From Savitreella phatthalungensis (lineage: Eukaryota), in assembly GCA_051599415.1 (NCBI GenBank), contig AP039707.1, positions 62,001-126,000 of the forward strand: a DNA stretch of 64,000 nt, written 5' to 3'. Position 1 is the first letter of the stretch. Each line of letters opens with the position of its first letter. The notes under the pieces are model-generated. The model ran no database searches, was not told where the DNA came from, and saw nothing but the letters and a program-made list of their open reading frames with translations. A program made the position numbers and the translations under genes. Of the stretch, positions 4,301-52,365 are shown piece by piece.

Positions 4301-4571
4301 TATATCGACTGGGTTGACTGACGAAAGTTGAAGATCACGTGTTATAAATCGGTCAGTCTAATGCATGTGTCAATGAGCTTGATTCGATCTTTATGAGAAG
4401 TTAGACAGTTGTTGATGCGGTGTATCAATCAATTGGTATGAGGATGTCGTTGGTGGACCTATGGTCTCGGTGGCGGATCAGGCGTCTGCGTGCATTGGTG
4501 GAGGAGAGTTTCAATTGTCTGGAGAAATATATATATCCAGCTTGACTCAGGTATAAGATTATCATCATCAC

Positions 4572-4618
4572 TCTGCGTTTCATTCTGCGTTTCATCCTAC
4601 GTTTCATCCTGCGTTTCA
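4572..4618. repeat. 12-bp minisatellite, about 4 copies (TYCTRCGTTTCA)
   Basis: tctgcgtttca ttctgcgtttca tcctacgtttca tcctgcgtttca seen directly. Confidence 0.8.
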
Positions 4619-4701
4619 AGAATTCATAGACTTTGATTGAACTTTTCGTGACTGATCAAAGAGAGTTTCCTGAATATTATATCTCTCTATTGAATTGATT
4701 G

Positions 4702-4841
<140 letters not shown>

Positions 4842-5373
4842 CGACTTTACCTGTTCGTCTTTCCTCCACAACCTCCCACACTCAACTTTCTAAGCTGGAG
4901 GGAGAGACAAAGAGAGAGAGAGAAAAGAGAACAAATTTGATCAAATATGACGGTGTGGGTGGCGCGGCCCGATATTTTATTCAACTTCAGTACAGACTGA
5001 CTGGACTCACTCAACTGACTGCACTGATCCAGGGATCATCACCAGGTCAGCGTAACTGACTAGAGCGACAACACAAGAGGGGCACATCTACAACCTTTGA
5101 AGGGTATACTATTGTGTAGATTGTAGTACATCATCCCACTCTACACCACAGACAGTCATACGTTCATCCACAGTACAGATCTGAGGATATCAATTTCCTC
5201 CTGTTCTCTAGCAAAAGTCACGAGCAACAGGAATCTATTAAGTCAAATTCACGCTCAAGCCTATCGCTTGCAGCACTAGCAACAGCAACAGCAACAGCAC
5301 GAGTCATCGCACGAGCAGTAGCAGCAGCAGTAGCAGCATCAACAGCAGCAACACTAACAGCAACTGTAAAATC

Positions 5374-10556: not shown

Positions 10557-10598
10557 GTAAACAAATCGACCAGAGTCACGTGACTGGAGTAAACAAAT
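10557..10598. promoter_or_regulatory. Two forkhead-type sites (GTAAACAAAT) flanking a palindromic E-box (GTCACGTGAC) upstream of BUB1
   Basis: GTAAACAAAT at 10557 and 10589; GTCACGTGAC at 10575-10584; about 150-190 bp upstream of the BUB1 ATG. Confidence 0.6.
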
Positions 10599-11214
10599 CT
10601 GCAGTACACGTGATCATTAGACTTACATCAAGAATAACACGTGTCCACAGCCTAATTCTTGTCTGATGCATGTGAGACATTCACCCGGATGCACAGTTAA
10701 TCAGCACGTGCAGTGTATGCACCTTCACGTTGGCGGAGGTGATGCCTTCTGGCAAGCAGTCGACATGAAGAGCTCTGTCTTCATCTGCCAATGTCTACAT
10801 CGATTCATGCAGGAGTCCTGGTCATATCACTGGCCTGTTTGACTCACTATGTCATTCGCCGGCGCAATTGTCAAACCCCTACAGAATGATCAAACGACTT
10901 GCGTGACGAGGCGGCACCGAAAGATGAAAGCACGCTTGTCGCTCTATGTTCCTTGTACGAAAGAATATGGTCTCACCCTGCGGCTCCCTTGCTCTTTCGA
11001 GAGTCGGTCTGCGAAAGTCCTCTTTCAGAGTTTGCTGGCTGACTATCCCTCCACCTAACACATGTGCATAATCTACGTCATGCCTCGTCGGCAATTTCAA
11101 CCGAATTTTGAAAAGAGAACAGATAGAGAGAGACATAACAGCCGCGGTCAAGGTCGTAAAAGGAGCCCCGATACCCCTTGAAAGAGGCTCTCGTTCGTGG
11201 CTGGGCTCGAGATC

Positions 11215-18837: not shown

Positions 18838-20070
18838 CTTCTCGTCGAGCGCTCTAGACGGATCTTGAGCCGAGCTGTCAAAGTCCGAATTGTGAAGTGT
18901 GTGACTAGCGGTTTGCTCAAGTCCTAGGTGGATGTGAAGCCAGTCATTGGGAAGAAGGAACGGTGAGAACGGCGATAGCTAGATGCTGCAAAGGTGTTGC
19001 GCGGAGAGAGTGGATAAAGCGGATTGAGGATGAACCGATGAGCGCGGAGTCTATGCTTTGTAGTTCGGGCGTAAGGGTTGACGAGTGACGAGTGACGACA
19101 AGCGAGACGACAGTGGGAAGCGAGGGTCTCGCAAGGGTAAGATCAGGTAAGATCGATAGTGTCGAGCTAGCTCAGAGTCAGGGTCGAGTGGGGGCCGAGT
19201 CAGAGTCGAGTCAGAGTCGAGCCGAGCTCAGAGTCAGAGTCACGAGGGAAGATGGACCTCACACCCGACGATCAATGTGATAAGTCGATGGAATGGAGGG
19301 CGTGACGATGATTTGTGGTTGCAGTTGTAGTTGTGGTGGATTCGATTGCCCGAAGCTAACAAACACAAGGCGCTTGACTTGATCTTCTTCTGCCACCTCA
19401 AGATCTCGAGCAACTTAAGCTTAGCTTTTTGAATCTCTCGATGTCTCTTAGCGTTGTCTCTGATCCAGGGTCATGTCTGACCCGAAGAAACGGATAGAGA
19501 GAGCGCTTAGGCTTACGCCCACGCTTCGGCTTAGTCTGGCCTCCGAGGGTGAGGAAGTTCCCTGACTTTCTGGATTAGATTCAAAAGGCTTATGCCGGGC
19601 TTGTTTCCCTTATGGCGACCGCAACAGGTGTGTGTGTACCTGCAGCCTGCACGTTTTGACAGGTCGGCTCTGGGGACGCCTGTGGAGGAGATGCCGGTGA
19701 TGCCGGTGACGACTGAACCTGTGTAGATACAAGGTCTCACTTTTCTTGTCACTCCGGCATTATTCACCACCCCTTTGAACTTAGGACTTTGACCTTGGAC
19801 GGCGTGAGATGGGTGAGCTGGATGATTCTTGGGTGCGGACTAGAGCGAGCGAGATCTGGTAGCCTTGTCGGTTTCGGCTTCGGCTTCTATAGAACGGAGC
19901 GGCTTGTGAATAGAATATGAAGAGCAGCGTGGAAAATCCAGCGGGGCTTCCGCGTGAAAGCTCGGTCGATCCTCTCTCGTTTGCAATCTGGGTTCTTCTA
20001 GTTTAGATACCGGGTCAGTCAATGACTCGTTCGCGCTACATTGCTCAAACTCCAGAGCAGATCTTGGAAG

Positions 20071-20382
20071 ATGGATCTGATAGAGGTGAATGAGGAGGTG
20101 GAAAGGCAGCGGCTTGGGAGAGAGAGCTGTCTTAGCAGTAGTGAGAGACCCAGGATAGTGGAATATCCAAGTTCAACTTCAACTTCCGTCTATCCGCTTG
20201 ACCTTGACCTATGGCAGAGTCACGGGGGAATGGATGATGGATTGTCTCCGATGCTGACCTCCCAAACAGTCGAGAGAAGCCCAGCTGCTGGAGAATTGAG
20301 AAAGAAGGAAGCATTGAGAAGGAAGCTCTTCAGCCTAGAAAGAATCAAGCAAGAGCGAGTAAATCCTGCGAAAGGCGAGTGA
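20071..20382 (+). CDS. Possible small orphan protein (103 aa)
   Basis: ATG-initiated ORF with protein-like composition and a charged helical C-terminus (ELRKKEALRRKLFSLERIKQER), inside a 5-kb gene-free gap; no recognisable motif. Confidence 0.2.
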   Translation: MDLIEVNEEVERQRLGRESCLSSSERPRIVEYPSSTSTSVYPLDLDLWQSHGGMDDGLSPMLTSQTVERSPAAGELRKKEALRRKLFSLERIKQERVNPAKGE

Positions 20383-21104
20383 ACTCTGAGGAGGGTGAAA
20401 AGACATAGGACTTGGACATTGGCCTTGGACATAGGCCTTGGACATTGGCGTAATAGCTACAGCTTGTAGCAAAAGGCAAGGCCATGGTCTGTAGCTGCTA
20501 TTGATAGCGTAGATGGACGGGAGCGCTTCCCTTTTACAACCCGCTCATCCTTACTTTTCAGGCCGCTCTAGGTTGAAGACGGCTTCTTGACATTCATGGC
20601 ATTCATGGCATTGATGGCTTGGAAGGGCGGCTCCCAGACCGACGTCACCCTTCCTCGCTCATCTTCTTTCGCCATGTTTTCTTGGTATTTGGTAAAGAGT
20701 GGAAGCTAGGAGGGAGATGTGACGTGTGTCTTGTTGGTCGTTGTAGCTGACAGAGCACATTTGTCTTTTGACCTTACCCGAAGCCATACTCAACATACTT
20801 TTTCCAGATGAAAAACAAAAAACGCCACACTGGGTCTCGACCATGAAGATCTACAGACAAGCTTCACCGTTGATGGCATGGATGATGAAGATGTGAAGCT
20901 GGAAGGGACTTTTCGACTCGGATAAGCTTTTCTCAATCTTCTCAATCTTCAGACGGTCAATCAAGTCAAACACTCACCTGTTTGGAAGTTGTGAAAGGGT
21001 TGGCCAAGCAGTGACTGCAGCTCCACCTAGCCAGGTGGTCCAATGTCCCCTCTTGTCGATCCTCACTCAATCCCAAGAAGAGCTTTTCACCACGGCCTCG
21101 CCTC

Positions 21105-21180
21105 GCTTTGCTTTCCTTCACTTCACTTAGCTTTACTTTGCTTCACTTTGCTTCACTTTGCTTCACTTTGCTTTGCTTCT
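21105..21180. repeat. Degenerate pentamer repeat (CTTTG/CTTCA)
   Basis: gctttgctttccttcacttcacttagctttactttgcttcactttgcttcactttg... seen directly. Confidence 0.75.
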
Positions 21181-23903
21181 CTTGACTTGACCTCGCCTCC
21201 TCATCTTTCCACAATCGAATAATCTTCTTGGCTCTTCACCTCGTGGGCAATCCCCTGCTCCGATCCACAGACAATGTGAGATATGAGACGCGTGCGTTAC
21301 AAAACGAACCCATCCCATGCACCGCCAGCCTCGATATTGGGAAACGTAACGCGGTCTTGGACAAGGGATCGACCAAAAGTAAACGCTTCTCGACCCTCGC
21401 TCACGCTAATGCTAATGCTCACGTTCCCGTTCACGTTCACGTTTCTCGATCTCGATTCTCGTTCTGCGACTGAGACACGCCAGAAAAGCAAATGCCGGAA
21501 TTCGGACCTCTCCGTCATGCTAGTATTGATAGATCTCTGGAATCTCCCGTCAAGCCCGACAGAGTGCTATTGCAGCCGACAGCAGTGTTGGTTGACGACC
21601 CTTTGCCTCGCTTTAGTGGAGCGTTTTTCTCTCCTCTGTTCCCATCCGTACTCGTGTCGATGACCCTCGCACTCACGGGACACTTTCTTTTTTTTCCCTC
21701 ACCCGCTCTACCGGTCCGCCCCACTGACAAGGCAGATCGACCTAAACTGGACTATTGCCCTCGGCCGGCACTCAAAAACGCCACCCCCGTCTCACCTGCT
21801 CCTCGCCCGAAAACACCATCAACGGGTAGTCCTTGGGGTGGGCGCGAAAGTTTGAATCTCGGATGCTGAAAAGGCTCCGAAGCGAAGAGTTACTTGATTG
21901 GACGCCACATCTTCTATCAAGCTGAAAGCAGAGAGACTGTCAAATACTGGATGACGAAGACTCCGTGTAGGCGCCGAAGCTCTGGTCGATGCTTTTGACC
22001 AAGTCCCATGACGCGAGCAAGGACTTTGAGTTAGCGGCTCTTGAATACCATGATTCCCGCCACGTTGTCAAAAGAGTTCTTCCTTTCGTCCGACCATCCC
22101 AATGGACCGTGTCTCGCTGATGTGACATGTCCCCCTTCCAAGGATGATATCCTCCCGCGGCAGACTTTTCTTCGTCCGGACAATTACAAAAAATGCCGAG
22201 CTCGCGAGCGTTCGAGCGAGAGCGAGTCCCATCATGAACGCCTTAAAAACAGTTCACGCACTTGGTGTTTCGCATGGTCTGACTTGTACCGCGTTTGTGA
22301 CGATGCATCCATCTCCTTCCGCGCGAGTTCGTCGTCGACATGACCCTTTTTCTTCGCGTCTCTCGGCATCACGAACCTCATCTTCCTCTTACAAAGCTCT
22401 GCTTACCTAGGCGCTCTGTAGTTTGGACGGAATGACCTGACTCGAGTGTACTTTTGATCCGAGGATGCGGATAGGATGACGCCTGTCACACCTATCTCGT
22501 CCGAACTTTTTGGGAGTACAGTTCTGACACCTGCCAGATTTCGAGGTCTTCACTGTTCTCGGAAATGAGCTCTAAATGAAGAGGAGCAGCCTGTAGAGGG
22601 ACCTCCGAGTGGGGCGCCTCGTCACCTATACCGACGTGTTCATCTGCCTCATCGATCTGACCTGTCACCTCCCATCACTCCTTAAGCACCGCTCCAGCTT
22701 CACATTCCCAATCCACACTCCCATCGGTCTATTTTGGCACGCCGAGTGGCGTTTCCTTCTGGCCACCGTAAATCTGTAAGAGGCCAACACCATGTCCAGA
22801 AAGGGAATCAAATCTGACAGCCTTCCAGGCTACTCCTGCTTCACGGTCGTCGTATCAAGGCGGCTGCCGAGACATTCCTGCTAGCGTTGCCCCAATCTTC
22901 ACATCCTTATTTGCCGTAGGTGTCCTCGCCTTCTGACCCCTTTCATCGTCCAGGCACCTAGTCTCATACGTCCCTTAGAGGTGAGGTGAGACAAGGGCTA
23001 GACCCTACAGCGCTTGCATGCATGTTTGCCCTAGCACACGACGTCGGTGATGGGTTGTGAAAATTTGTTGCAACTGCACCTGATACCAGGCAGACCCGCG
23101 GACGATGGTGTGATGGTACCATGCTCGATGCTATTGCGTAGCGTCGATCAAAGGGCGCGAGGGCGGGACCTTGAACGTGCCCCGCCTTATCGCAACGTCC
23201 AGTATGACAGAGAGGCGTGAAGGCATGAACCATCCAGACTTCACGGAATCGGCTCCCGGAACTCCCTAAGTGATCGACATCCCTCTTCTCCAGATCGGGA
23301 AATCCCTCTTTTCTCCACAACCTCACCTCGTGCGTCGACGGGCGATACGGTGGAATCGGACGATGTGACGAGTCGATTAGATGAGATCGACAAGGTATCC
23401 GCGGATGGCTGTCGATCTTTCAGCCCGCACGCACACACGCCTGCTCGCGTGCGCGATCGACAGAGAAGGGATCGTCCGATTGGGCCTTGCGAGAGATACG
23501 ATAAGATGGATGAGATCATGATCCCCCAGACTCACAGCCCGGTGTCTCAGGATGTTTTAAGACCTGGGGGGATCGAGGTCTGTTTGACGAGCGAGAGCGA
23601 TGGCGCCATCGGGGACGATCCATCGTTCTAGGCTACCGAATGACCAAGAGCGATCTCGAGATAGAGTGCGCTTTCCTCGATGACCAGGGGTGGTTCAGAA
23701 GAGGGAGACGAGGGTGTAACATGTGCTTGTCGGTAGTGGCGACTTTCTACGTGCACGGTTCCTGGAGGATAAGTGTACTCTATTTTTACTACAGAGGTGA
23801 GAGAACGCACAGTGAGTCTGCGTTCGTAGAGTGTTGTCATCCAGGTCTCTGTCCATGCGGGTATGTGTGTGTGTCTGGGAGTGTGTGCCCTAGAGTGTGT
23901 GCG

Positions 23904-36559: not shown

Positions 36560-38894
36560 ATGGCAGACTACGATGACGATGATCTTTTTAAAGACCTGTA
36601 CGGTGACGAGGACAAGAAGGATGCTCCGGCGCCAGTAGCAGCAGCGCCCTCAGCAGCCGCAGCACCTGCTCAGGCTGCAGCACCGGCAGCTGCACCTGCG
36701 CCTACGCCTGTGCCGAATGCTGCACAAGCCGGGTCTGCTCCTACAGCTGTAACGACATCGGCTGACAAGTCGAACGACATCCTCGCGCAGCTTCAGGCAG
36801 CCGCGGCTCAAGGACAAGCTCGTGACCCGCGTCTCGGCGGCGCTGCACCGACACCTGTCTCTGCAGAGTACAACAGTGCGCCTGCAGGGCCGCCAGCGCA
36901 AGCACCTACGCCTGTGCCACCGTACATGGCCCAGCAACAGCAGCAGCAGCAGCAGTACCAACAGCCTCAGCAGTACCAGCAGCCACAGCAGCAGATGCAG
37001 TATGCACAGCAGCCTCCGCAGGCACCGAGCTACGGTGGCGGTGCTCCGGCCGGCGGCAACGGTGCTGCACCTGGAGCTTACGGCGGCGGCGGCAACAGCA
37101 ACTTTGTTCAGCAACCACGTCGTGATGAAGGGTATGTACCATTCCGTGTGACGAGACTAACGCGTAGAAAGAGCAGAGAACGAGGAACGAGAAAGAGAGC
37201 ATGTGTCCATATCCAGCAGAGATCTTGTTGTCGCTCAGAAAGAGAAGGCTCGCAATGGCGAAGCGCTAGATATACCGTACCAGGTCGGAGAAGACTGTCA
37301 GGGCAGTGCAATTGTACGCCTTATAGTCGCTCGGAAGCTAGAGAGAGAAAGAGAAAGAGAAAGAGACAGAGAGAGATATACCAAGACAGACCAAGAGACA
37401 GACAGAGAGCTCCCTCGTGCAAGCACAACCACTATCTACCATCCTTCCTACCTACCTATCTACCTTCATACGGTGACACAGACAGAGAGAACAGAGACAG
37501 TCAGACAAACACTTCTTACTCGTCGTAGCTGGAAGCACCATCGCTTTGTGGGTCTCGTCAAGTGCGACTGAAGGATCGGAGCGTGTTCATATCGGGCCAC
37601 TGCCTTCGACGAGCGCGTCCCAATCCTAGGTCACAGAGTACACTCTCTCTCAAGATAACATCTCTACAGACACACTCTCTATAACCTTCCTGAAGACCAT
37701 ACACCTCTCTCTGCCACGCTCACTATCGCTCGTTCCTCTCCTTGTTCTACTTCCCTACCGTCACAAGCCGACTCACAAGACAGATCCACAGAGACTAACG
37801 CGTTTACTGATAGAAAGATGTTTGTCGGCGGTCTCAACTGGGAGACGACCGACCAATCGCTCCGAGAGTACTTTGAGCAGTTTGGCCGTGTTACAGATGC
37901 GATGGTGATGCGTGACGGTGCTACGGGGCGATCTCGCGGGTTCGGATTCCTGACGTTTGCGGATGCGAGCATCGTGACTGGTGTGGTGCAGAAAGAGCAC
38001 TTCCTCGACGGCAAGATCATCGACCCTAAACGTGCGATCCCGCGTGACGAGCAGGAGAAGACTGCGAAGATGTTTGTGGGTGGTGTTCCGAGCGACTGCG
38101 ACGAGGACGCTTTCAAGGACTTCTTCACGCAGTTTGGCAACGTGATCGACGCAACCCTCATGATCGACAAGGACACAGGCCGACCTCGAGGCTTTGGCTT
38201 CATCACGTTTGAGCGTGACGACGCGGTCGAGCGGTGCATGCAGGTCCGCGACCTCGCCATCCACGGCAAGGTGATCGAGGTCAAGCGCGCAACCCCGAAA
38301 GGCCAAGACGCCAACCCAGGACGCTTCCAGCGAACAAACGCTCCACCACCGTCCGGCTACGGCGCACAAAACTTCTACGCACCATCCCCAAACGCCTACA
38401 ACCAAAACACCTCCTACCAGCAGCCACCGCCCACCCAACAACAACAGCAGCAGCAGCCAGCAGCAGCAGGGGCGTACGGTGGCATGACCCCGGCCATGAT
38501 GGCGCAGTACTACCAGCGGATGCAGCAGTGGATGGCGTCGATGCAGTCGCACATGAGTGCTCCGCAGGCGCAGGCGCAGAGTGGCATGACTCCTCAGATG
38601 ATGCAGCAGTTCGCTCAGTGGCAGGCGTCCCAGCAATCAGCCGGCACTCCTCCCCAAGGACCCAAAGACGATACCCAGGCCGACGCAAGGCGATCTTCAC
38701 ACCGTCGCGATCGATCACGGACCAGATCAAGATCACCAAATCGAGCAACGCAGGGTGCAAACAACGACTTCAGGAGGAGGTTAGATGATCGGCTTGACGG
38801 TGGAGGTCGATCCGGAGGAGGAGGAGGAGGTGGTAGACGTGATCGAAGGAGTGGTGGTTCTGGAGGTGGCAGATTCGAGCCTTATGGTCGGTGA
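36560..38894 (+). CDS. HRP1: Two-RRM hnRNP, Hrp1/Msi2-like; exons 36560-37131 and 37814-38894 (550 aa)
   Basis: Intron GTATGT (37132)...ACTAAC...TAG (37813); splicing gives [17 protein letters not shown]1 motifs RGFGFLTF and RGFGFITF; C-terminal PY-NLS-like GRFEPYGR. Confidence 0.9.
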
Positions 38895-38952
38895 ATTACA
38901 ATTTGAAGATGTTTAAGAGAGTATGCTGCTAATGCAGAGAGTTTTTCTATTA

Positions 38953-40905
38953 TTATCCCTTGTTGTCGTCGATGCATTTCTTGACGTCGTCTGCAGTCTG
39001 CTTGTCTGGGAAGCGGATTAGGGATTGTCTTATTTTGCGACCTTCGTCGAACCAGAAGATTCGGAGCGTTGTTTGATTTTGGACAATGTCGTAGTTGAAT
39101 TGGTGGTGAAGGTGGGTGTTGAGTCTGAGTTGGCCTAGGCCGCCCTGCTGGCGAGCGAGTACACGGACTTTGTCGGTCGCGCTGTTGCGCGATACCTTGA
39201 CCGCCACAGGACCAATCACCTGGTATGCCTTCGTGTCAGGGTCCAGGTGATACAACTTACCAGTCGAGGTGATCAGCGCAGTCTCGTCCTCCTCACCGGC
39301 ACCCGTTGCTGTGCCCAGGTCAGCACCTACCTCCGAGCCGTCCTCATCATCATCATCCTCGTCGCCTTCACCGTTGTCGTCGCCGTCCTTCTTGTCACCC
39401 GATGCAGCACCATCATCAGCCTTCTTCGGCGCAGCGAAGTTGAATGTTGGCGTCGTGGATGAAAATGCAGGAGCTGGTGCACTGCTTCCAAAGGAGAATG
39501 CGGGCTTGGGTGCGTCGCTGGACTTTGCTGCAGTCGCTGACCCGAAACCGAATGATGGTGTGGTCGTCGATGACGTTTGACCAAAGCTGAACGTCGCTGG
39601 CCCGGTCTTTGCACCAGTCGCCGCAGGTGGGGCCGCTTGGCCGAAGGAGAAACCAGTCGATGCTGCAGAGCCGCCAGAAGATTTGCCGAAAGAGAAGCCG
39701 CCGGTCGTAGAAGGTGGAGCAGAGGTGGTGGTCGCGGCGGAACCAGAATCCTTCTCGCCGCTAGCAGGCGCACCTGCTGGACTTGCAAGAGGATTCTGGA
39801 AGGAGAAGCCACTGCCAGATGCGAATTTGATTGGCTTATCCGGCGTCCAGGTGTGGTCTTTCTTCTCGTCTGGCTTCGGCGTGGCTGTAGCTGCCTCTAT
39901 TTTCTCGTCCTTCTTTTCTGATGATTCGGTCGGCTTTGTCTCCGCGGGCTTGCCGAAAGCCGGTACCTGTGCTCCTCCGAAGGAGAACTTTGGAGTCTCT
40001 GTTGCTGGTGCTACTGGCTTGGTAGCCGCAGCCCCAAAGCTGAAGGATGGCGCTTGTGCGTTGAAGGAGAATGAGGGCGCTTTGGGCTCTGCCGGCTTGT
40101 CTGCTGGCTTGTCATCAAGCTTGGGATACAGACTTGTTGTAGCTGTCGTGGATGGAGCGAAGGACGATGTCGAAGTCGACGTCGCACCGTCGACCGAGGT
40201 TTTTGGAGCTTCCATTGTCGATGATGGCTTTTTGTCAGGCCGCTCGCTCTTCTTACTCTCGTACTGCCCGCAGAGTTTTGTCAGATCAGCAAATGGATCA
40301 TTGTCAAGACTCCGTTGCACAGCCTTGAGGAAGGCTGTATTGACGGAGCGCGTGTGTAGCAGGTCCTGATATTCCGCATCATCGACATCGTTTCCTGTCT
40401 CGGTGTTGGAAGTCTGCGTCCCGGTATTCGCCGGCGCAGGCGTGGGTGCTGGCGCTTGTCCAAACAGCGACGAAGTCGATGGGGTGGTGGCAGCCTGTGC
40501 TGGCGCACCAAAGCTGAAACCAGATGTCAGCGCTGGCTGTGTCGAGGCCGGCGCGCCGAAAGAGAATGGCTTCAAGGCTTGACCCGAGGAAGACTGTGTA
40601 GAAGATGTGCCGAATGATACGTTGGCAAAGGGATTCGGCTTACTCGCGGGAGCGTCTCCACCCGAAGATGAAGTCGCGCCAGTCATACCAAAACTGAATG
40701 GGTTGGCTGCTGGCGCTGGTGCAGTCGAGCCTGATTCACCCTGTTCACCGGCTCTCCGCCGTGACTTGGGCATTGCGAGTTTCCGTGTGGCCATGACTTC
40801 TGCACTGGCCTGAACTGCAGGTTCTGGCGGTCCATCCCTGTCATACTCCGGATCATCCTCCAGATTCTCTCTGGTGATTTGCAAACCTGCCTGTCGCTTC
40901 GACAT
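38953..40905 (-). CDS. NUP2: Nup2/Nup50-like nucleoporin
   Basis: N-terminal KRQAGLQITREN...ASAEVMATRKLAMPK, many FSFG repeats, C-terminal Ran-binding domain (GEEDE...GKLY...RVLAR...LRLN). Confidence 0.88.
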   Translation of the reverse strand: MSKRQAGLQITRENLEDDPEYDRDGPPEPAVQASAEVMATRKLAMPKSRRRAGEQGESGSTAPAPAANPFSFGMTGATSSSGGDAPASKPNPFANVSFGTSSTQSSSGQALKPFSFGAPASTQPALTSGFSFGAPAQAATTPSTSSLFGQAPAPTPAPANTGTQTSNTETGNDVDDAEYQDLLHTRSVNTAFLKAVQRSLDNDPFADLTKLCGQYESKKSERPDKKPSSTMEAPKTSVDGATSTSTSSFAPSTTATTSLYPKLDDKPADKPAEPKAPSFSFNAQAPSFSFGAAATKPVAPATETPKFSFGGAQVPAFGKPAETKPTESSEKKDEKIEAATATPKPDEKKDHTWTPDKPIKFASGSGFSFQNPLASPAGAPASGEKDSGSAATTTSAPPSTTGGFSFGKSSGGSAASTGFSFGQAAPPAATGAKTGPATFSFGQTSSTTTPSFGFGSATAAKSSDAPKPAFSFGSSAPAPAFSSTTPTFNFAAPKKADDGAASGDKKDGDDNGEGDEDDDDEDGSEVGADLGTATGAGEEDETALITSTGKLYHLDPDTKAYQVIGPVAVKVSRNSATDKVRVLARQQGGLGQLRLNTHLHHQFNYDIVQNQTTLRIFWFDEGRKIRQSLIRFPDKQTADDVKKCIDDNKG

Positions 40906-41915
40906 GGCTATGACAGGAGGATAAAATTAAGGATAAGGAGACAGACGATGAGAGACTTTTCGGTTTCAGAAGTGAGGTATCGCTGATTGAGGTGAGGACC
41001 GAGGTAGTGTAGCAGATGATTGTAAGGAGGATGGTGCTGTGATAGGGTTGACTTGGAGGTTACGCCATGGGTTGTGTGAGCTTGTGCGGTACGAGTGAGT
41101 CCTGCACGGGAATCAAGCCGAGCACGGGATTGAAGATGTGGTCCACTATTCGGAGCCCTGGTCAGTCACTGTACGGTGTGTACTGCACAGGTAGGTCGAT
41201 GTCAATTAGGGTGATCTGACGCCACAGATTTTGTATCATGTGGCGCTATACAGAATCCCAAGTTCGAATGATTTGCACGGGTTTTTTACCTGTTACCAGG
41301 CCTGATAGACAGACTACCAGCGCTTAGACAACTGTTGACGCCCCAGAGCACACTGATCACGCACGGCCATGCATTCGACCTCTAGACTGGATCTGGAGCC
41401 AGAGTAGAGTTGCCGGTAAGCCGTACAGGTCGCTGAAGTAGAGGTCAGCCAGCGGACGCGCGGCCGTAAATCACTGAAGAGATATGCAGGTAAATAGACA
41501 GTCAGACAGAGAAGTGCTGCCGGTAATGAAGTGATATTTCTGCCGAGACGCTTCCAGATGACGAGTTACCGGAGGAAGGACAAGCAGCAAAGTGACTCAC
41601 AGCAGCGACTCAGAGAGCGCGAATCATGCTGCTTGAGGAGACTTTGTCCACGGCAATTGACGTGGGTCTGCGTTCTAGCTTGGAAGATATAGTCAAGTCA
41701 AGTGATGTCGGTGGAGAAGATGATTTCTATGGAGGCGGATGATTGATCACATCTGAACATGAGGGCAGACTTGGGATTGTGTATCTGGGCCCTTGAACTA
41801 GACCGACAAGTGCGTTAGGGATGACGATGACGACATCGGTGTGTTTCATCCGTCTCTATGTGTGTCTATGAGACTTCACATAGGGATGTATATGTGCATA
41901 TGAGTGTGCATGTGC

Positions 41916-41979
41916 GCATGAGCATGAGCATGAGCATGAGCATGAGCATGAGCATGGGCATGTGCATGGGCATGTGCAT
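41916..41979. repeat. (GCATGD)n hexamer microsatellite
   Basis: Six perfect GCATGA units followed by GCATGG/GCATGT variants. Confidence 0.9.
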
Positions 41980-42015
41980 TTACATACACACATATGTACA
42001 TATGTTAATGGTGAT

Positions 42016-43735
42016 CCCTATGCTCCCTGAACCTCCGAATTAATTCGGTGAAAATTCGGTGAATATTTAGTGGTCTAAATTCGGTGAAAATACGGGGGTT
42101 TTGGCGACCGCGGTTTTTCGGAGGTACCGAATTTCCGCCGAATTTCAGATTTGGAGGTAGTATCATTTGTAAAAACTGAATTTGACGACTTGAGTGATTT
42201 TAGCAATTTATTTGTATCTAAACGCGCTAGAAAGATAATCTGTGAAAAGTCGGAGGTTGCACGTGATCGGCCAGAATCGTAGCAGGTAGACGAGATTGTT
42301 TCAGATTGACGAGGATGTACCAGATAGAGTGCTCTTCAGGTCGTGTCTGCTGTGACACGGCAAATAGATGCCAATGACAGCTGTGCAGCGCCGGAGAAAT
42401 CCTGTACCGGGTATGTCAGCATGTTTCAGGATGGACAGGAGCGAGTCCCTACCGCTTGACATGTTTGAAGTAGAAAGTGAGTTTCACATAGATAGTCTGT
42501 CGTCTTGGCCTGTGAGACTGTCAGTACTGTGCAATGGCAATAGGCTATTTTGGATAGACGCACCCTGTAATGGTAGTTGAAACCACGAGTCTGTGATAAG
42601 GTCAGTCAGTCGGAATGAATGTGATTCAGGTAAACAGACCTTTGTTTCAGATTGACGGGTCCAGTGACAATTCTGCAACGGTGTCAATGATCTGGTAGAA
42701 GGGTGTTTCAGATAGACGTACCTTTGTATTGTTTCTGGAAGTAACGAGTCTGTCATTGTGTCAGTATAGTGCAGATAAGGGCATGTTTCAGGTAGACAGA
42801 CCTTCGCATTGACCTTTGCCATGAGATTGTCAAAGAGTCAGTGTCCAGTAGAGTCACAGGAATGTGCGTACCTGACTTGTCTTGTCTCAGATAGACGAGC
42901 GTCAGACAGATGAAGTGTTCCAGATAGATGAAGCGTGCCTGTGACAGCATCAGTAGAGTAGGATGATGAGAGGTTGTGGACCACTCGTACCTTGAGTGTA
43001 TGATTTAGATGATCGCAAACACACTGTGTTGAGTCAGCAGGCAGCTAGACAACCGTCTTGTCCTTACAGTGAAGTAGTTGTTTCAGGTTGATTAGACACG
43101 CGAGTCTGACAGATGATATGTAACAGATTGACGGCACATGTGTCGATTCCTCAGTGAGGTGCTCCATACATGCAGCTGGACAGACACTCTTGTTGCGCGT
43201 GGAAGTAGCATGGTCACCACTGTCATAAGGTTGTGAGTGAGTGACTAGTGTCGGACTGTCTACCTGAAACACGTCGATTGTCTCACTTATATAAGCTACA
43301 GAGGAACACTGAAAGAAACACTAATCTACTGTAGGCTGTAGGCGCCAGAAAAGCCTCCACATTATCGATTTAGCAATTACGCACTGCTCTACCTCTTGCC
43401 TCATTGAAGCAGCAAAGTTGAATTTGTCTAAGTCCGTTAGAAACTCCGGGGTAAGTCTGAGGTTGATTGCAAGGTCTGAGATTGATTGCTGCGTTTCAGA
43501 CATCACGTGATTCTAAGTACACAAAATCGGTCAGAATTCGGAGGTGACACTAAAAATCGGTGATTTCTCGGAGGTAAATTCGATCTGAAAGTCAGATTCG
43601 GTGATTTTCCGGAGGCCGCCAAATCTGCTGCGAGAAATCGGTGATTTATCTGTGACTTTTCGGAGGTCAACTTTCGCCCTTCATAGTAAATCGGCGATTT
43701 TTCTGCGATTATTCGGAGATCGGGGATTCATAGGG
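42016..43735. mobile_element. Putative non-autonomous TIR DNA element (1.72 kb) with subterminal and internal repeats
   Basis: Left end CCCTATGCTCCCTGAACCTCCGAATTAAT versus reverse complement of right end CCCTATGAATCCCCGATCTCCGAATAAT; AT on both flanks (possible 2-bp TSD); TCGGWG repeats at both ends; no transposase ORF. Confidence 0.6.
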
Positions 43736-44027
43736 ATGATCTCCATTCGAGCAGTAGATATATATAACTTTACAGCGTACACTCATACGTGGGTTTCATG
43801 TATGGACGTGGCTGGGTTCAGCATGCATTGGCAGGTGGAAGCAAGATCAAGTGGTGAAATAATTCGAAAGGATGATCACGTTCAACCTTGGATAGATTAG
43901 AGTACGTTCTCTAGATCCATCCAAGCTACGTGCTGTTGTGTGCATCCGCTGTTTCGAATTGATGAGAAGGGATAAAGCATGTGCGAGAATTGTGTGTACG
44001 GGATTGATCCAAAGGGATGCACGATTC

Positions 44028-44080
44028 GGTCATGAATTGTATGAGATAGAGTAGGTGGGTCATGAATTGTATGAGATAGA
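44028..44080. repeat. 23-bp direct repeat, 30-bp period
   Basis: GGTCATGAATTGTATGAGATAGA at 44028 and 44058. Confidence 0.9.
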
Positions 44081-45609
44081 ATCGATGGGTCAGTCAATCA
44101 TACCTGACGGAGATGAATTCAATGGATGAGAAAATCCTCCAATCTGAGCGTGGATGGAAATTGTATTCAATAGATGATCCAAGAATAGATCTTCTGTACG
44201 TGGGTGTACGCGTGGTTGATTTTCTCTCTGAATGCACTTTCAATCTGAGACAGCGAGTGCAGATCATTTGACACTACTACTGCTACCACTACTACTGTTA
44301 CTGCTACTACTACTACTAAAATCTCCAGATCCATAAAATTTATACATTTTCATAATCGAGTGAAATCGTATCAGGATACTTTCTCAATGTGGAGACCGTG
44401 ACCGTGGAAATGAAAATGGGAAGGAGATATGACATTCATATCTGACTGCGGTCAGATCAAGCTTCCACTCAGTGAGCATGGGGTCAAAGAATTATTATTG
44501 TTGTGAATATAGATTAAATTCTCTATAGATCCGGATTGAAAATCAGCTGAAAATCACTACAAGTACTATATACACAATTAATCATAGAATCTACACCCAT
44601 GTTCACATATATTCACACACATATACTGCATGGATATACACGATCCTCAGCTGTCCAATACACACACACGTTCATCCCTCTTCCAGATATTCTCTTCTTC
44701 CTCTCTCTCTCTTCTCTCTCTCTTTCTCAGCCATCCACATCCACATCCACACATCTCCCTACCAGGATACACACTCATACACACACACACACACACACAC
44801 TTCCCCAATACACACACACACCCACACACACACATCCCTCCACCTTCAGCAAACATCATCATCTTCATCACCCTCCTCTCTCCACTCTCCTCTCCCTCCA
44901 AGTGTCAAACTCAAGCTCACGCTTACGCACAAAACGAATCCAGGTCGACTTACATACAGTTACGACCGTCCAGAAAGCGTAATCGTTGACCTATACAGGA
45001 ACCTTTGACATTAGCACCAAGGTCATCCGCCAGGGGTCACAGACACTGTCAGAAGCAGACACACAGTCTAGGTACGTGTAGGCGCAGATACAGGTACAGA
45101 GGCAGAGAAAACAAGCGCAAAAAGCAGTTGCAGTGACCTTGTCAAAAAGTCATTCTTCAGCATTGGCATCTACGCTTGTTTACGGAGATCATTATTTCCA
45201 AATCACTGGATTGATTATTCACGCTCAAGAGGCAGCAGCAGCAGCAGCAGCAGAGAAAGAGCTTCCAGATTCCATTTGCGTCTTCTCACTCAGTCTTCTT
45301 ATCTACACGAAAGTAGACTCCAACGACAAATTGACGCAATCTCTTCCAGTCTCATCCTGATCTCCCTCTGAGCCAGTGGACCCAAAGGATCTTTCAATTG
45401 ACTGCCCTCATCGCATCTGGCTATATCACTCCTCCCTTCAATCCAGCTCCACCGTCTAAGCTTTGCTTTCTGCGCGTCATTCACTTGTCGCGTAGCAAGC
45501 CTCTGTACGCTAGTCTTCCTTTCAGCGTTCCTTTTCTCTTCTACCAACACACATCTTCCTTTCAATCCTCTATCCTGGCTTCCTTCGCATAGAGACCAGG
45601 AGCTAGCGC

Positions 45610-48600
45610 ATGACGAAGCGCAAGACTCCTGAATCACCAACCGTCCATGGCGGCAATACCACTGCCGGGACAAAGCTCAACCACGGCACTTCTGGCGGCT
45701 CCCAATGCAAGACACCGACACACGCAAAGCTGCGCTCTCCATCTAAGTCCACCCACAATGGAAGAGCAAACTCCTCGTCCTCCTCACACTCCGAGGATGA
45801 ACCCATGAGCGACGTCACCCCAGATGCAGATCAAGACACGAATCCGAATGCAGATGCTCTCAGCGCGACTTCATCTTCAGAGCAAGAATCGAGGTGTCCA
45901 AGGTGTCCTTCTGAATCGTCCACTGCATCAACCGATCCAATAGCTGCAAAGTCAGCTTCTAAGGCTGCCGAGTCAGACGACACCGCAGTCGCCTGGCTAG
46001 GATGTGACAGATGCAAGACATGGTTCCACGCAGGCTGCGTCGATCTGAGACCCCAATCAGTCGTGCGGTATATCTGCAAGACGTGTGAGGTTGCCAATCC
46101 GCACGACCGTACTGTCACCCGCGAGGAACGACCGAAGCGCGCGAAGTTGGGCGGCATCGACTACAACGCGCTCAACGGTGGAGAACATGTCAACAACCTT
46201 CGTCACCTCTACACGACCGCCATCGAAACGAGACCTTTTGCAGCGCGACAAGTGGTCGAATTTGACGACGGCACTCCCCTGACAAAGGCTTACATTGATC
46301 AGAACGGCTTTGACAAGCCAATCGTCATCCACAATCAAGACGGCCTCGACATGGTCATCCCATCCGATCTCACCGTCGACCAAGTGGCAGACAGTGTGGG
46401 CAGGGAGGAGCCAATCGAGGTGTTGGATGTGCCAACTCAGGAAGGATGCAAGGGTTGGACACTCGGCAAGTGGGCAGACTTCTACAACGAGTCGACCCCA
46501 ACGCGTGTTCGAAATGTCATCTCTCTGGAAATCTCTCACTCTGATATCGGCAAGCAGATGAGCCGACCAAAGCTCGTGCACCAGCTCGATATTGTTGACT
46601 CGTTCTGGCCGAAGAAGCGATTCGCTATCAGGGACTATCCCAAGGTCCAACTCTACTGCCTCATGTCCCTTACAAACTCCTACACAGACTTCCACGTCGA
46701 CTTTGCCGGCACATCGGTATTCTACCACATTGTTCGCGGGCGCAAGACCTTCCTCTTCATACCTCCCACACCGGCGAACCTCAACAAATATCGAGAATGG
46801 TGTTCCTCTTCGAACCAGTCCACTACCTTCCTCGCAGACGCGTGCAAGGAGACATTCAAGATCGACCTCGGCCCTGGGGACACGATGATGATTCCCTCTG
46901 GGTGGATTCATGCAGTCCATACGCCAGAGAAGTCCCTCGTCATTGGTGGCAATTTTCTCTCTCTCGTCGGCATGACGAAACATCTCGGCGTGGTCGAGAT
47001 CGAAGACCGCACGAAGGTGCCTACCAAATTCAGGTTTCCAAGCTTCGGCAAGCTGATGTGGTATGTGGCTGTGGGCAGCCTGACGCGACGCCCCTCCCTG
47101 AGCACGGAAGAGCGACGTGGACTTTTCGCCCTTTGCCGCTACGTTCTGAGACTGGCATTGTTTGCGGAGAACAAGGAGGACCTTCTTGGAGATCGAACAC
47201 CGACAAAGGCCGAGGTCGAGGACGCTAAAGAAAGCATTCCGCGCGACATCATCCGTGGCTCACCGATCCTGCTCGCTAAGATGGCCGTCGCTTACGCGTA
47301 CACGCAACTCGCGGATGATTCGGATCGTCAGGCAGTCGGAGATCTCGATGACCTCGCCATCGACGCGAGCGACCGGAAGGCAGAGGTCCTTGTTCATTAC
47401 GATATTGAGGAGAGCAAATGGGAGGCGCTCGACCAGGCAGATCGATCAGACTCATCATCCTCAGATGGACCTGTCGAGCTTGATGGCGTGGCATGGCACG
47501 AGCAGTGGCACAGACTTCGCCTTTCGCCCAAAAGTGGCAGTCACGATATCCTCCGTTCCTTTCTGCGGATCCCGATCGAAGATCAGCGCAGGCTCGAGCG
47601 GAAGCGCGCGCAGGCGGCCGTCAAAGACAGGACGGAGCAGAAGATGATCACGACGCCTCCAGTGAGTCAAGCACAGCTGCCGCCTCCCCAATCACCATCG
47701 GAGCAGCCCTCTCAGCAACAGCCACAGTCACAGCCACAGCAGCTCAAGCAGGAGCAGAAGGAGGAGCAGCATCAAGAAGCTGTCAATCATCAGCTTCCTG
47801 TCAGCTCGCCAACCTCAGTCGAGACCGGTTCGAATGATCAGGACAACTCTGATGACTCAACCGTCACGTCTGGCTCCGACTCAAACACGCCCGATGACGA
47901 AGACATGGACATGATGGAAGACCCTCTGCCCCCACCGACAGTGATAAAGACCGATCCAAATGCACCGAGCCGAGCGCTCGACGACATTTACGCCCACAAC
48001 ACGTACTTGCCGCCACTCGACCTCGCAGTCGCCTACTCGGACCCGTTCAGCATGTTCCCGCCTGCGCCTGCATCGCAGGCCTCTCACGCACCTGCTGTGT
48101 GGGAGTCCCAGATGGGCTGCATGCGTTGCAAGGCGATGCGGAAGAAGTGCGACAAGGCTCAGCCGTGCTCTTCCTGTATCGAGGACGGGTGCACGAGCGA
48201 GTGCCAGTCGTTCATGCCAGCTGCTGGGGCGAAGCAACAGGCGGAAGCGTTGTGGGCGGCGCAAGCAGCTGCTCAACACGTGGCCGCGCGTGCGATCGCA
48301 ACTGCTACTGCCGGTGCAGCTGGCGCGATGACGACCTCGACCTTGACGTTTGACCCGACTGCACAGCTCGGGCATCCGCTCCAGGCAGCTGTCGGCGCTG
48401 GCATTCCCGGTCTGCCGCTGCCGGTGACATCGGCGGCCGTGGCTGCTGCCGCCGCCCTCAACGGGACGATCAACGGAACGATCAACCCTGCAGCTCCTGC
48501 GCAAGCAGGCAACCTGGCGAGTGCTCAAGGAAAGCCGCGAAAACAGAAGCAGTACGGTCGTCGGTGTCTCCGTTGCACGAAGGACAAGAAGCCCTGTAAC

Positions 48601-49419
48601 CTGGAGAAGCCGTGCGACCGATGCACGAAGAAGGGTCTGAAGGCGGACGAGTGCATCTATCAGTGGGAACTGGACGGCACAGCGCCGCCGCCGCCGCTGA
48701 CGAAGGAGGAGAAGGAGAGGAAGCTCCAGCAGGACAGAGATCGCGAACGTGAGAAGGACGGAAAGAAAGAAGCGGCACGACTTGCTGCGGCTGCAGCCGC
48801 AGCAGCTGCCAAGAACGGTGGCACGCCTGCATCTGCCCCTGCATCTGCCCCTGCGGCTGCGACTGCTGCAGCCAACGGTATCGCCGTTCCAAGTGGGCCT
48901 GTGACACCTGGCGTGCCATCTGCCGTGCCATCCCTCGTTCCCTCGACATCAGGAGCTAGCACTGGCACCCCTTCACCAGCTCCATCGGGCGCAGTCACTC
49001 CAACAACGACGACAACAACAACAGCAGCAACGACGACGACCCTACCCCAACAGACCGCAGGCAAGCCTGTCCTGGTCAAAAGCGAAAGTTCTCTGAGCAG
49101 CGTCAGTTCAATCCCGATCGACTCACTTTCTACGAGCGACCCATCGGACGGAGCTAAACTTTTACCACCTCTGCCGCCACCATCGCAATCAGCGACAAAC
49201 TCATCGGAAAAATCGAGCAACCCTAAGGCCAAAACCAGTACTACTACCACTACCACTGCCACTACTGCCGCGACACTTCGAAGCTCGCCACAGAAAGCGT
49301 CTGCCTCCACCTCTGCAGTTTCAGTCTTTAGCCCAACATCGGCCTCGAACAAGACAAACAGCGCTAGCAGTACAGAGAGGAGTGCAACGGCCACACCAAA
49401 GCTCGTGTCGCTCAAGTGA
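45610..49419 (+). CDS. JHD1: PHD-JmjC histone demethylase (JHD1/KDM2-like) with two C-terminal Zn2Cys6-like clusters
   Basis: PHD CPRC...WLGCDRCKTWFHAGC...YICKTC; JmjC NVISLE, YPKVQLYCLMS, TDFHVDF, IPSGWIHAV (HxD...H intact); Cys6 clusters at 48118-48204 and 48565-48660. Confidence 0.92.
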   Translation: MTKRKTPESPTVHGGNTTAGTKLNHGTSGGSQCKTPTHAKLRSPSKSTHNGRANSSSSSHSEDEPMSDVTPDADQDTNPNADALSATSSSEQESRCPRCPSESSTASTDPIAAKSASKAAESDDTAVAWLGCDRCKTWFHAGCVDLRPQSVVRYICKTCEVANPHDRTVTREERPKRAKLGGIDYNALNGGEHVNNLRHLYTTAIETRPFAARQVVEFDDGTPLTKAYIDQNGFDKPIVIHNQDGLDMVIPSDLTVDQVADSVGREEPIEVLDVPTQEGCKGWTLGKWADFYNESTPTRVRNVISLEISHSDIGKQMSRPKLVHQLDIVDSFWPKKRFAIRDYPKVQLYCLMSLTNSYTDFHVDFAGTSVFYHIVRGRKTFLFIPPTPANLNKYREWCSSSNQSTTFLADACKETFKIDLGPGDTMMIPSGWIHAVHTPEKSLVIGGNFLSLVGMTKHLGVVEIEDRTKVPTKFRFPSFGKLMWYVAVGSLTRRPSLSTEERRGLFALCRYVLRLALFAENKEDLLGDRTPTKAEVEDAKESIPRDIIRGSPILLAKMAVAYAYTQLADDSDRQAVGDLDDLAIDASDRKAEVLVHYDIEESKWEALDQADRSDSSSSDGPVELDGVAWHEQWHRLRLSPKSGSHDILRSFLRIPIEDQRRLERKRAQAAVKDRTEQKMITTPPVSQAQLPPPQSPSEQPSQQQPQSQPQQLKQEQKEEQHQEAVNHQLPVSSPTSVETGSNDQDNSDDSTVTSGSDSNTPDDEDMDMMEDPLPPPTVIKTDPNAPSRALDDIYAHNTYLPPLDLAVAYSDPFSMFPPAPASQASHAPAVWESQMGCMRCKAMRKKCDKAQPCSSCIEDGCTSECQSFMPAAGAKQQAEALWAAQAAAQHVAARAIATATAGAAGAMTTSTLTFDPTAQLGHPLQAAVGAGIPGLPLPVTSAAVAAAAALNGTINGTINPAAPAQAGNLASAQGKPRKQKQYGRRCLRCTKDKKPCNLEKPCDRCTKKGLKADECIYQWELDGTAPPPPLTKEEKERKLQQDRDREREKDGKKEAARLAAAAAAAAAKNGGTPASAPASAPAAATAAANGIAVPSGPVTPGVPSAVPSLVPSTSGASTGTPSPAPSGAVTPTTTTTTTAATTTTLPQQTAGKPVLVKSESSLSSVSSIPIDSLSTSDPSDGAKLLPPLPPPSQSATNSSEKSSNPKAKTSTTTTTTATTAATLRSSPQKASASTSAVSVFSPTSASNKTNSASSTERSATATPKLVSLK

Positions 49420-50720
49420 GGGGTGACTGGGCGATCGATCGATTGGTTGGACGTGATTAGTCTGGTAGCATCGATAGCACTTTGACGCGTGCGTACTCAC
49501 GTACGTAAGCACGTCTGTCACTTTAATCTTTATGAATGACCTCTCACTCATACGTAGTCTACCTAGCCTTTTCTATGCCTCTGTGTCTGCAATGAGGATG
49601 TATCCTGCACGTGGTAGGCTGTTGAGAATATGCATGTGATTATGACATCGTCTGTAGAGACACGTGATCTTTGCAACACACACCCACACCCACACACGTG
49701 ATTTCTGTACTGTTCTTCTGTCGGCTCCTCGGACTCGGCCAATTTTCTTCTAATAGAAATTCTTATCAGAATCAGATAAATAATCTAGAAAATCAACAAA
49801 ATACTAATGATCGACCCAGCCCAGATCACCACTCAAATTTCAAGTCTGTTTGTGTGACCTAGCACGAATCAATGCCAAACTAATTCCTCGGGGGGTCAGA
49901 ACAGGCTCCACCGTCGGCTTCTATCTGAGAGCTCAGAACTGCGAGTACACAGTACAGACTACAGTAGCTCGGCATACGGTCAAAACCCAGAAGGTCTCTT
50001 CATTCTCACTTTCGCCCTCTCCTGTGTAGCCTAACCCGAAGGCCCGGAAGTCTTGGTAGTCGCGGTGGGGAGCCGCCATCGCCCCGAGTTCAAGTGGAGA
50101 AATAGACTCGAGCTCATCCTCAAACCCGTATCAGATCCAAGAGAGGAATAGGTCAAAGGAAGATCTATAGCGTATAGCGTATCCCAGCCGCCAGCCGTCA
50201 GCACCAGTACCATAACCAAAGTCAGAGCCAGTGAACCAGATTCAGACAGCTGTTCTAGAGTACGTAGTCCAGATCCTTGGGAGGGTTCAAACTGCTGAAC
50301 TTCCCTGGGGAGCTTCAGTAGTCAAGTTGTCCAAATCACATTCATTTGATCCTCCATCGGCATACCCTAATCAAACTCCGGTCAAGCAGCTGTAAGCGTC
50401 ACCGTCACACTCACCCGCCTCCCCCGCAGAAACACTCACCTCTCTCTCTCTCACTCACTCTCTCTCTACTACACCTACCGACATACCCTCACGACCGATC
50501 GCCTCTCTCTCACTCACACTCGCACCCACACACGCTCACGCTCACGCTCACACCTACACTCACAACTCTCTCCGGGCCGACGGATCTGCGTCCTCGACAA
50601 CCGACGCACGACACCTGGTCCCAGACTACAAAACCAACCAGAACCCCTCCAACTCAAACATCTGTCACAGACTTACATCTACCCAAAAACCCTTTCTACC
50701 CCAATTACACATATACAACC

Positions 50721-52175: not shown

Positions 52176-52365
52176 CCTCAAGCAAATATACTGTCTGGAG
52201 TCTTCGTGGGATGTTCGTTGTCTTGACGTCCTTCGATCCTCAGTAACTTTTGTGCAAGGTCTCACAAAGTTTCCAGCAAGTCACGTGTACTTTCACGTGA
52301 TGCTCCGAGGACGCGATGTACAGTCACGTGATTCCAAATTGTAATTCATACGCGCAGCATTGAAG

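Follow-up and report, generated by a model that had tools for sequence, protein, structure and literature searches.

The 64-kb window analysed here (the whole stretch of 64,000 nucleotides from Savitreella phatthalungensis, positions 62,001 to 126,000 of contig AP039707.1) contains at 42016-43735 a non-coding element of 1,720 bp, with a GC content of 45% and tips reading CCCTATG...CATAGGG. This element is likely to be a low-copy, non-autonomous class II transposable element, that is, a cut-and-paste element bounded by terminal inverted repeats (TIR). It is most likely an ordinary kind of selfish DNA, not a centromere, and most likely represents a new transposon family in a poorly sampled fungal lineage. 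A non-autonomous DNA transposon had already been proposed in a preliminary description of the sequence. The proposal is supported by the TIR, by motif arrays in the terminal ~240 bp of each end, by the lack of coding capacity, by the presence of more than one version of the element in one public sequencing run (X1) and by a copy in another run (X3) whose match to the window ends at the tips. The element and its borders are as follows.

42016..43735, no strand assigned: the whole element, delimited from its termini, motif counts and reading frames, and by the similarity in run X3, which starts at 42016 and ends at 43736.
42016..42058, plus strand: left TIR, starting with CCCTATG, 27 nt when ungapped and about 43 nt when gapped.
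43695..43735, minus strand: right TIR, ending with CATAGGG, from the repeat finder and the gapped alignment.
42014..42015, no strand assigned: AT just outside the left terminus, a putative 2-bp target-site duplication, from sequence reading and an offset scan.
43736..43737, no strand assigned: AT just outside the right terminus, the putative other half of the 2-bp target-site duplication, from the same reading and scan.

Inverted termini of about 28 bp had been noticed beforehand, and their existence was confirmed. The repeat finder paired the arms 42014-42040 and 43711-43737 over 27 nt, with 74% complementarity and no gap. When the left end was aligned with the reverse complement of the right end by gapped local alignment, the similarity covered ~43 nt with a score of 30. 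Shuffled sequences gave a mean score of 16.7 and a maximum of 24, and none of 300 shuffles reached the score of the native ends. The inverted repeat is thus significant, and the element possesses the terminal inverted repeat that characterizes TIR transposons.

Inside these termini, the preliminary description recognized two subterminal blocks of about 240 bp packed with a TCGG-type motif and a 1.2-kb core carrying a separate repeated motif. Both statements stood up to motif counts. The internal features are listed below.

42016..42260, no strand assigned: left subterminal block with six TCGGWGR motifs (five on the plus strand, one on the minus strand), from motif counts.
42042-42095: an 11-bp unit, AATTCGGTGAA, in tandem within the left block.
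42127 and 42138, minus strand: CCGAAT twice, in minus orientation, within the left block.
43500..43735, plus strand: right subterminal block with seven TCGGWGR and nine WTCGG motifs, all on the plus strand, from motif counts.
42261..43499, plus strand: core in which a 15-nt motif, consensus TGTTTCAGATAGACG, is dispersed in 8-11 copies, seven of the best eight being on the plus strand.
42260..42265, no strand assigned: a CACGTG where the left block meets the core, at chance level.
43504..43509, no strand assigned: a CACGTG, part of the palindrome ATCACGTGAT, where the right block meets the core, at chance level.
43455..43492, plus strand: a 19-bp unit present twice in tandem; run X1 has a third unit, 19 letters inserted behind 43454.

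The TCGGWGR motif has 60 matches in the window, of which 13 fall inside the element: six in 42016-42260, none in the core and seven in 43504-43735. Given a rate of 0.75 per kb outside the element, the Poisson probability of such densities is 4.7e-8 for the left block and 8.6e-10 for the right block. According to the repeat finder, the right block consists of about five composite units, each made of AAATCGGTGA, a short spacer and TCGGAGGT, at a spacing of 30-41 bp. Alignment of the left block with the right block in direct orientation gave a score of 24, which was reached by 6 of 300 shuffles. For the core, the string TTCAGRTWGAC was searched with at most one mismatch. It matched 13 times in the window, a number reached in none of 100 shuffles, and eight of these matches lie at 42300-43268 (seven on the plus strand, one on the minus strand). 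Alignment of 11 instances of the core motif produced the 15-nt consensus given above, while the sequences flanking the instances were unrelated. At 42546-42811 the motif recurs about every 80 bp.

No coding capacity had been attributed to the element, and we reached the same conclusion. It contains 36 stop-to-stop frames of at least 30 aa, the longest of 117 aa, and none of the 10 longest had a Pfam match above the cut-off (best E-values 0.094 and 0.15). Nor was a transposase domain found among the 24 open reading frames (ORFs) of the window that were scanned.

Copies of the element were searched for in four public sequencing runs, X1 to X4, which were compared as contigs and aligned on positions 38000-48000 of the window at a likeness of at least 80%. 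X1 and X2 derive from one sample and hold 0.89 and 0.81 of the sampled words, respectively. X3, from another study and under another organism label, holds 0.09 of them. X4 carries the organism label of X1, comes from another sample and holds 0.00 of the words; its five contig pieces were all simple repeats (38436-38834, and a microsatellite at 41916-41970), none of them on genes or on the element, so that this run is uninformative on the presence of the latter.

X3 contains a close relative of the fungus, as pieces of the JmjC gene that neighbours the element were recovered with 4-11 differences in 213-825 nt (about 98% identity). Five contigs of this run cover 42016-43736. The contig at the left end (379 nt) is matched over its letters 1-324; the match stops at 42016 and 55 more letters lie beyond. 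The contig at the right end (357 nt) is matched over letters 1-308, with the match stopping at 43736 and 49 more letters beyond. Since the matches end within one base of the TIR tips while the contigs run on, X3 appears to contain a copy of the element with different flanks, the limits of which are the TIR tips. The flanks were called unlike from where the matching stops, not from the flank letters themselves. Such a break of similarity at both tips would be expected of a copy inserted at another site, and is the strongest single argument for a discrete mobile unit, with just those limits that the preliminary description gave it.

The contigs of X1 (12.7 Mb in total) reproduce the flanks of the element with no difference, on a 26,289-nt contig over 38000-41945 and on a long contig over 44845-48000 on the right. 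They are broken inside the element, and the interval 42196-42545 is covered twice. One version is a 350-nt contig identical to the window (depth 45.5), the other a 332-nt contig in which 34 letters differ and 18 are gap letters (depth 81.9). This double coverage indicates that at least two versions, about 10% apart, exist within a single sample of a small genome. Two further contigs over 42516-42843 have depths of 94.6 and 80.8, as compared with 47.2 and 48.4 for the flank contigs. Judged by depth, 42196-42545 could be present as one copy of the first version plus about two of the second, and more broadly the left ~800 bp about three times and the right ~900 bp once, with the proviso that contig depth is not copy number.

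In X2, the depth was about 387-423 on the gene flanks (contigs 37813-41945 and 44573-49480) and 3.5-12 inside the element, and a 321-nt contig over 43769-44089 had a depth of 63.8. Such depths would be consistent with an RNA-like library, with the element almost silent and transcripts from the flanks coming close to both tips. As contig depth can neither rank parts nor establish this, the pattern was not used as evidence.

Several observations weigh against a transposon. A blastn search with the element found no second copy in the window (outside matches of at most 33 nt, with E-values of at least 1). A pattern built on the TIR consensus hit six loci on metagenome contigs, none of which resembled the element by blastn, and these were taken as chance matches. 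No empty site or excision joint across 42016-43735 was seen in the four runs, which does not prove that none exists. In X1, extra versions were limited to the left ~800 bp (to about 42843), the right ~900 bp being single at a likeness of at least 80%, and a 201-nt contig of this run (41927-42127) passes the left tip unbroken. The left limit of the extra versions need therefore not be the TIR. As to the orientation of the arrays, the WTCGG motifs are distributed as four on the plus strand and three on the minus strand in the left block, and as nine and none in the right block. The layout had been called symmetric, which is correct for the terminal ~43 nt, these being inverted; the rest of the two blocks are not mirror images, and their motifs lie mostly on the plus strand at both ends.

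The target-site duplication belongs with the same set of points, as no significant direct repeat was detected over the 169 border offsets tried. The dinucleotide AT does lie directly outside both termini, as first described, but its interpretation as a 2-bp duplication is indistinguishable from chance: the flanks match at 2/2 positions, which is expected in 1 case in 16, and AT also reads the same on both strands. Direct repeats that are just as good emerge when the borders are moved slightly (TGAT, 4/4; TGATC, 5/5; GGTGATC/GATGATC, 6/7). With such rival repeats, none of them significant, the duplication cannot be established from the single copy in the window.

Because the extra versions in X1 are partial, the main sober rival is a non-mobile, low-copy dispersed or segmental repeat that was duplicated by recombination, its ends and arrays being by-products of short-repeat expansion. 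We consider this unlikely. Such a repeat would agree with versions that cover only the left ~800 bp, with a contig that crosses the left tip, with the want of a demonstrable target duplication and with motifs in largely direct orientation at both ends. However, the TIR is significant, and segmental duplication does not predict that the match in X3 ends at both TIR tips within one base.

We also compared the element in the window with its counterpart in X1. About 7 kb of flanking sequence shows no difference, and differences were found only in the core, at 42516-43533, the intervals 42016-42127, 42196-42545 and 43534-43735 being identical. The differences amount to 23 substitutions, eight in the contigs over 42516-42843 and 15 in the right long contig, and to three insertions or deletions: one base inserted behind 43224, three bases missing at 43244, and the extra unit of the 19-bp tandem repeat at 43455-43492 (two copies in the window, three in X1). 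Nine of the 23 substitutions are common to X1 and X3 against the window, and so is the 3-base deletion at 43244. This pattern could reflect gene conversion between copies or strain polymorphism.

Mutation of the type produced by repeat-induced point mutation (RIP) was considered and rejected. The indices of the element are 0.76 for TpA/ApT and 1.09 for (CpA+TpG)/(ApC+GpT), outside the range typical of RIP, and no CpA/TpG context is apparent at the 40 differences listed for the runs against the window. Among the 15 substitutions in the right long contig of X1, 13 are transitions, again without this context.

If the element is a transposon, it would be mobilized by a transposase encoded elsewhere in the genome, which would recognize the inverted termini of ~27-43 nt (CCCTATG...CATAGGG). 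The enzyme would bind cooperatively to the TCGG(T/A)G(A/G) arrays in the terminal ~240 bp of each end, pair the ends, cut at the CCC/GGG tips and insert the element anew, duplicating a short stretch of the target. The core of 1.2 kb would then be family-specific, non-coding filler with a second array of a 15-nt motif. In this scheme, we infer the binding of transposase to the motifs, the size of the target duplication, the superfamily and present-day mobility.

The genomic position of the element has to be weighed as well. The two genes beside it diverge, with their 5' ends facing it; the distance is 1.1 kb to the start codon of a NUP2-like gene and 1.9 kb to that of a gene for a JmjC protein. 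This location would suit a host cis-regulatory module of the divergent NUP2-like/JmjC promoters, possibly an exapted transposon, with sites for zinc-cluster and basic helix-loop-helix (bHLH) factors. Fungal promoters typically contain CACGTG as well as clusters of CGG-type motifs, and CACGTG is often clustered in other promoters and intergenic regions of the window: groups of three or four occur at 10577-10705, 49608-49695 and 52282-52325, which suggests a bHLH-type promoter element widely used in this genome. We nevertheless judge a regulatory module to be quite unlikely. The distances to both start codons count against it, as do the related versions in the X1 sample and the copy with different flanks in X3. 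In addition, CACGTG is not enriched in the element. The preliminary description located the two sites correctly, at 42260 and 43504, but their number is what chance would give: the window contains 24 CACGTG, or one per 2.7 kb, and the probability of two in 1.72 kb is about 0.14 by a Poisson estimate.

The two CACGTG sites, together with CCGAA strings, had also been read as echoes of the centromere DNA elements (CDE) I and III of budding yeast, and a centromere or boundary had been envisaged. More generally, the element could be a sequence-defined chromosomal element (the core of a centromere, a replication origin or a boundary) kept at about one copy for each chromosome, in which case a host protein would occupy the terminal TCGG arrays and a second factor the 15-nt array of the core. 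Both the general proposal and this specific version appear very improbable to us. What they have in their favour is an inverted-repeat-flanked core, the small number of versions in a genome of ~13 Mb and the surrounding gene-free gap, in which the GC content falls to 42-50% as against 55%. The gap had been described as 4.7 kb long and is real (ORF-free over 40906-45609), but two other gaps of at least 4 kb without an ORF of at least 200 aa exist in the window, at 1368-5373 and 18838-23903. Neither is the GC dip unique, since the bins 4001-5000 and 44001-45000 both have a value of 0.419. In a point centromere, CDEI and CDEIII are about 80 bp apart and the DNA between them is roughly 90% AT. The element resembles this system in its CACGTG and CCGAA strings and differs from it in spacing, in the want of an AT-rich CDEII and in host lineage. 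The CDEI-CDEII-CDEIII arrangement is absent: 1.24 kb separates the two CACGTG sites, which are no more frequent than chance predicts, and the CCGAA strings are nothing but the TCGG array motif in reverse. Among windows of 80 bp, the highest AT content is 72.5% within the element and 76.2% over the entire 64 kb, none reaching 85%. The host is far from the yeasts with point centromeres, and X1 has extra versions that are incomplete and about 10% divergent. The proposed echo of CDEI and CDEIII is thus unsupported.

A gene for a long non-coding RNA would likewise appear as a non-coding unit of 1.7 kb in an intergenic gap. We regard this explanation as extremely improbable. Searches with Rfam gave only three sub-threshold matches (E-values 0.31-0.87), all of them in the neighbouring microsatellite, and a tRNA scan of the window found none. 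Moreover, RNA genes are not characterized by TIRs, by subterminal arrays or by copies set in other flanks.

The window as a whole is fungal and gene-dense, with ordinary housekeeping genes. These encode a branching-enzyme-like amylase, a BUB1/Mad3 kinase, malic enzyme, a zinc-cluster factor, an M28 peptidase, RPL4, a GH88 protein, ASF1, an RRM protein, the NUP2/RanBD1-like protein, a JmjC-PHD-Zn2Cys6 protein, mitochondrial S18, RFA1, a polymerase B subunit, a PRP6-like protein and a TBC GAP. The best named relatives of the RFA1 homologue are from Saitoella (51%), Protomyces (50%) and Schizosaccharomyces (48-49%), and the best named match of the NUP2-like protein is from Saitoella (31%). As all these relatives are distant, the host can be placed as a deep-branching ascomycete. 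The ORF at 45610-49419 (1,269 aa) combines a PHD finger, a JmjC/Cupin_8 domain, a Jumonji helical domain and a fungal Zn2Cys6 cluster, a mixture that is unusual for a histone-demethylase-like protein.

On its left side, the element is abutted by a (GCATGA)n microsatellite of 10.7 units (41916-41979). Similar microsatellites occur at several other loci in all four runs, where they break contigs (loose ends at 41916-41970). A third terminus-like string, TTCACATAGGGATG, is found at 41875-41888, 128 bp to the left of the element and oriented as the right end; together with the left tip it forms an outward-facing pair that brackets the microsatellite. This string has the 10-mer CATAGGGATG (41879) in common with the right tip and its flank. 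Alignment of the surroundings of CATAGGGATG at 41879 with either end block did not exceed shuffled sequences (36 and 75 of 300 shuffles reached the score). The third string may represent what is left of another copy, a footprint or a chance occurrence. On the other side, the right part of the gap contains 2.2 repeats of a 30-bp unit (GGTCATGAATTGTATGAGATAGA...) at 44028-44092 and a low-complexity tract rich in CT, CATCCA and AC at 44690-44894, about 0.8 kb upstream of the JmjC-PHD gene. An ORF of 127 aa (44599-44982) spans this tract and has no Pfam match, and is for both reasons probably not a gene.

Should the transposon reading be correct, the element would define a new family of non-autonomous DNA transposons in a deep-branching ascomycete lineage. 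Its architecture, a TIR combined with a dense subterminal array, would be convenient for tracking down the matching transposase and for typing strains. The element would have little importance beyond annotation unless it is active or serves as a chromosomal landmark.

We finally compared the element with known transposon superfamilies. A full-text literature search, judged by titles and abstracts, returned nothing relevant on a transposon with a CCCTATG inverted repeat. PiggyBac elements are described, in excerpts of PMC5381638, as having a TTAA target duplication, CCC/GGG tips, short TIRs and, in some groups, subterminal repeats. The element resembles them in its CCC...GGG termini and short TIRs. 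This superfamily was rejected, since the flanks GAT|CCC and GGG|ATG have no TTAA, the nearest one being 7 bp outside the left tip.

Supposing that the element is a transposon, a hAT-like affiliation is conceivable, though doubtful. The element is similar to Ac/Ds in its short TIRs and in the ~200 bp at each end that are packed with a CGG-containing motif (AAACGG in Ac, WTCGG here), and to Ds2 in its non-coding filler interior and its size of 1-2 kb. The short subterminal motifs within ~200 bp of the ends that mark hAT elements are therefore present, the binding of transposase to them being putative here. The terminus CCCTA departs from what we take to be the hAT terminal consensus. In addition, hAT transposons generate 8-bp target duplications, whereas the best direct repeat at the element is 6/7, after a one-base shift of both borders; the 8-bp flanks ATGGTGAT and ATGATCTC agree at 4/8 positions, and no 8-bp match was found at any of the 169 offsets. 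According to excerpts of PMC3260210, the ends of Ac/Ds contain multiple transposase-binding hexamers within the terminal 200 bp, and Ds2-type derivatives have filler interiors.

Under the same supposition, a CMC-type superfamily with a 'CCC core' is a slightly better but still tentative candidate, and the rest of our expectation goes to another or unclassified superfamily. The CACTA/CMC-like assignment made at the outset is plausible from the CCC tips; it is not shown, as the target duplication cannot be established from one copy. Autonomous CMC members encode a Transposase_21 (Tnp2) transposase; the 24 scanned ORFs of the window include no transposase domain. In PMC5751038, Basidiomycota and Mucorales are given as the main fungal groups with CMC elements, and Taphrinomycotina are credited with very few DNA transposons, from only five superfamilies. 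As the host is an early-diverging ascomycete, the element differs in this respect from most fungal CMC elements, which lowers the prior for the assignment and weighs against it. Its structure offers several likenesses. CMC termini have CACTA or a CCC core, and the element begins with 5'-CCCTATG, its first five bases, CCCTA, being one base from CACTA. A 2-3-bp duplication is typical of the superfamily: in this single copy a 2-bp direct repeat, AT/AT, lies directly outside the TIRs, though one AT pair is at chance level, and the 3-bp flanks, GAT and ATG, differ. Excerpts of PMC8978399 indicate that CACTA elements generally have blocks of subterminal repeats of a few hundred bp. Those of PMC1636069 describe CACTA-related 'TRC'/CMC elements (SmTRC1 and insect relatives) with a CCC core and 2-bp duplications, 2-bp direct repeats flanking 7 of 14 copies of SmTRC1. 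The insect CACTA-related TIR in the same source is 27 bp long and starts with CCCTAG, and the TIR of the present element, of about 27 nt, likewise starts with CCCTA.

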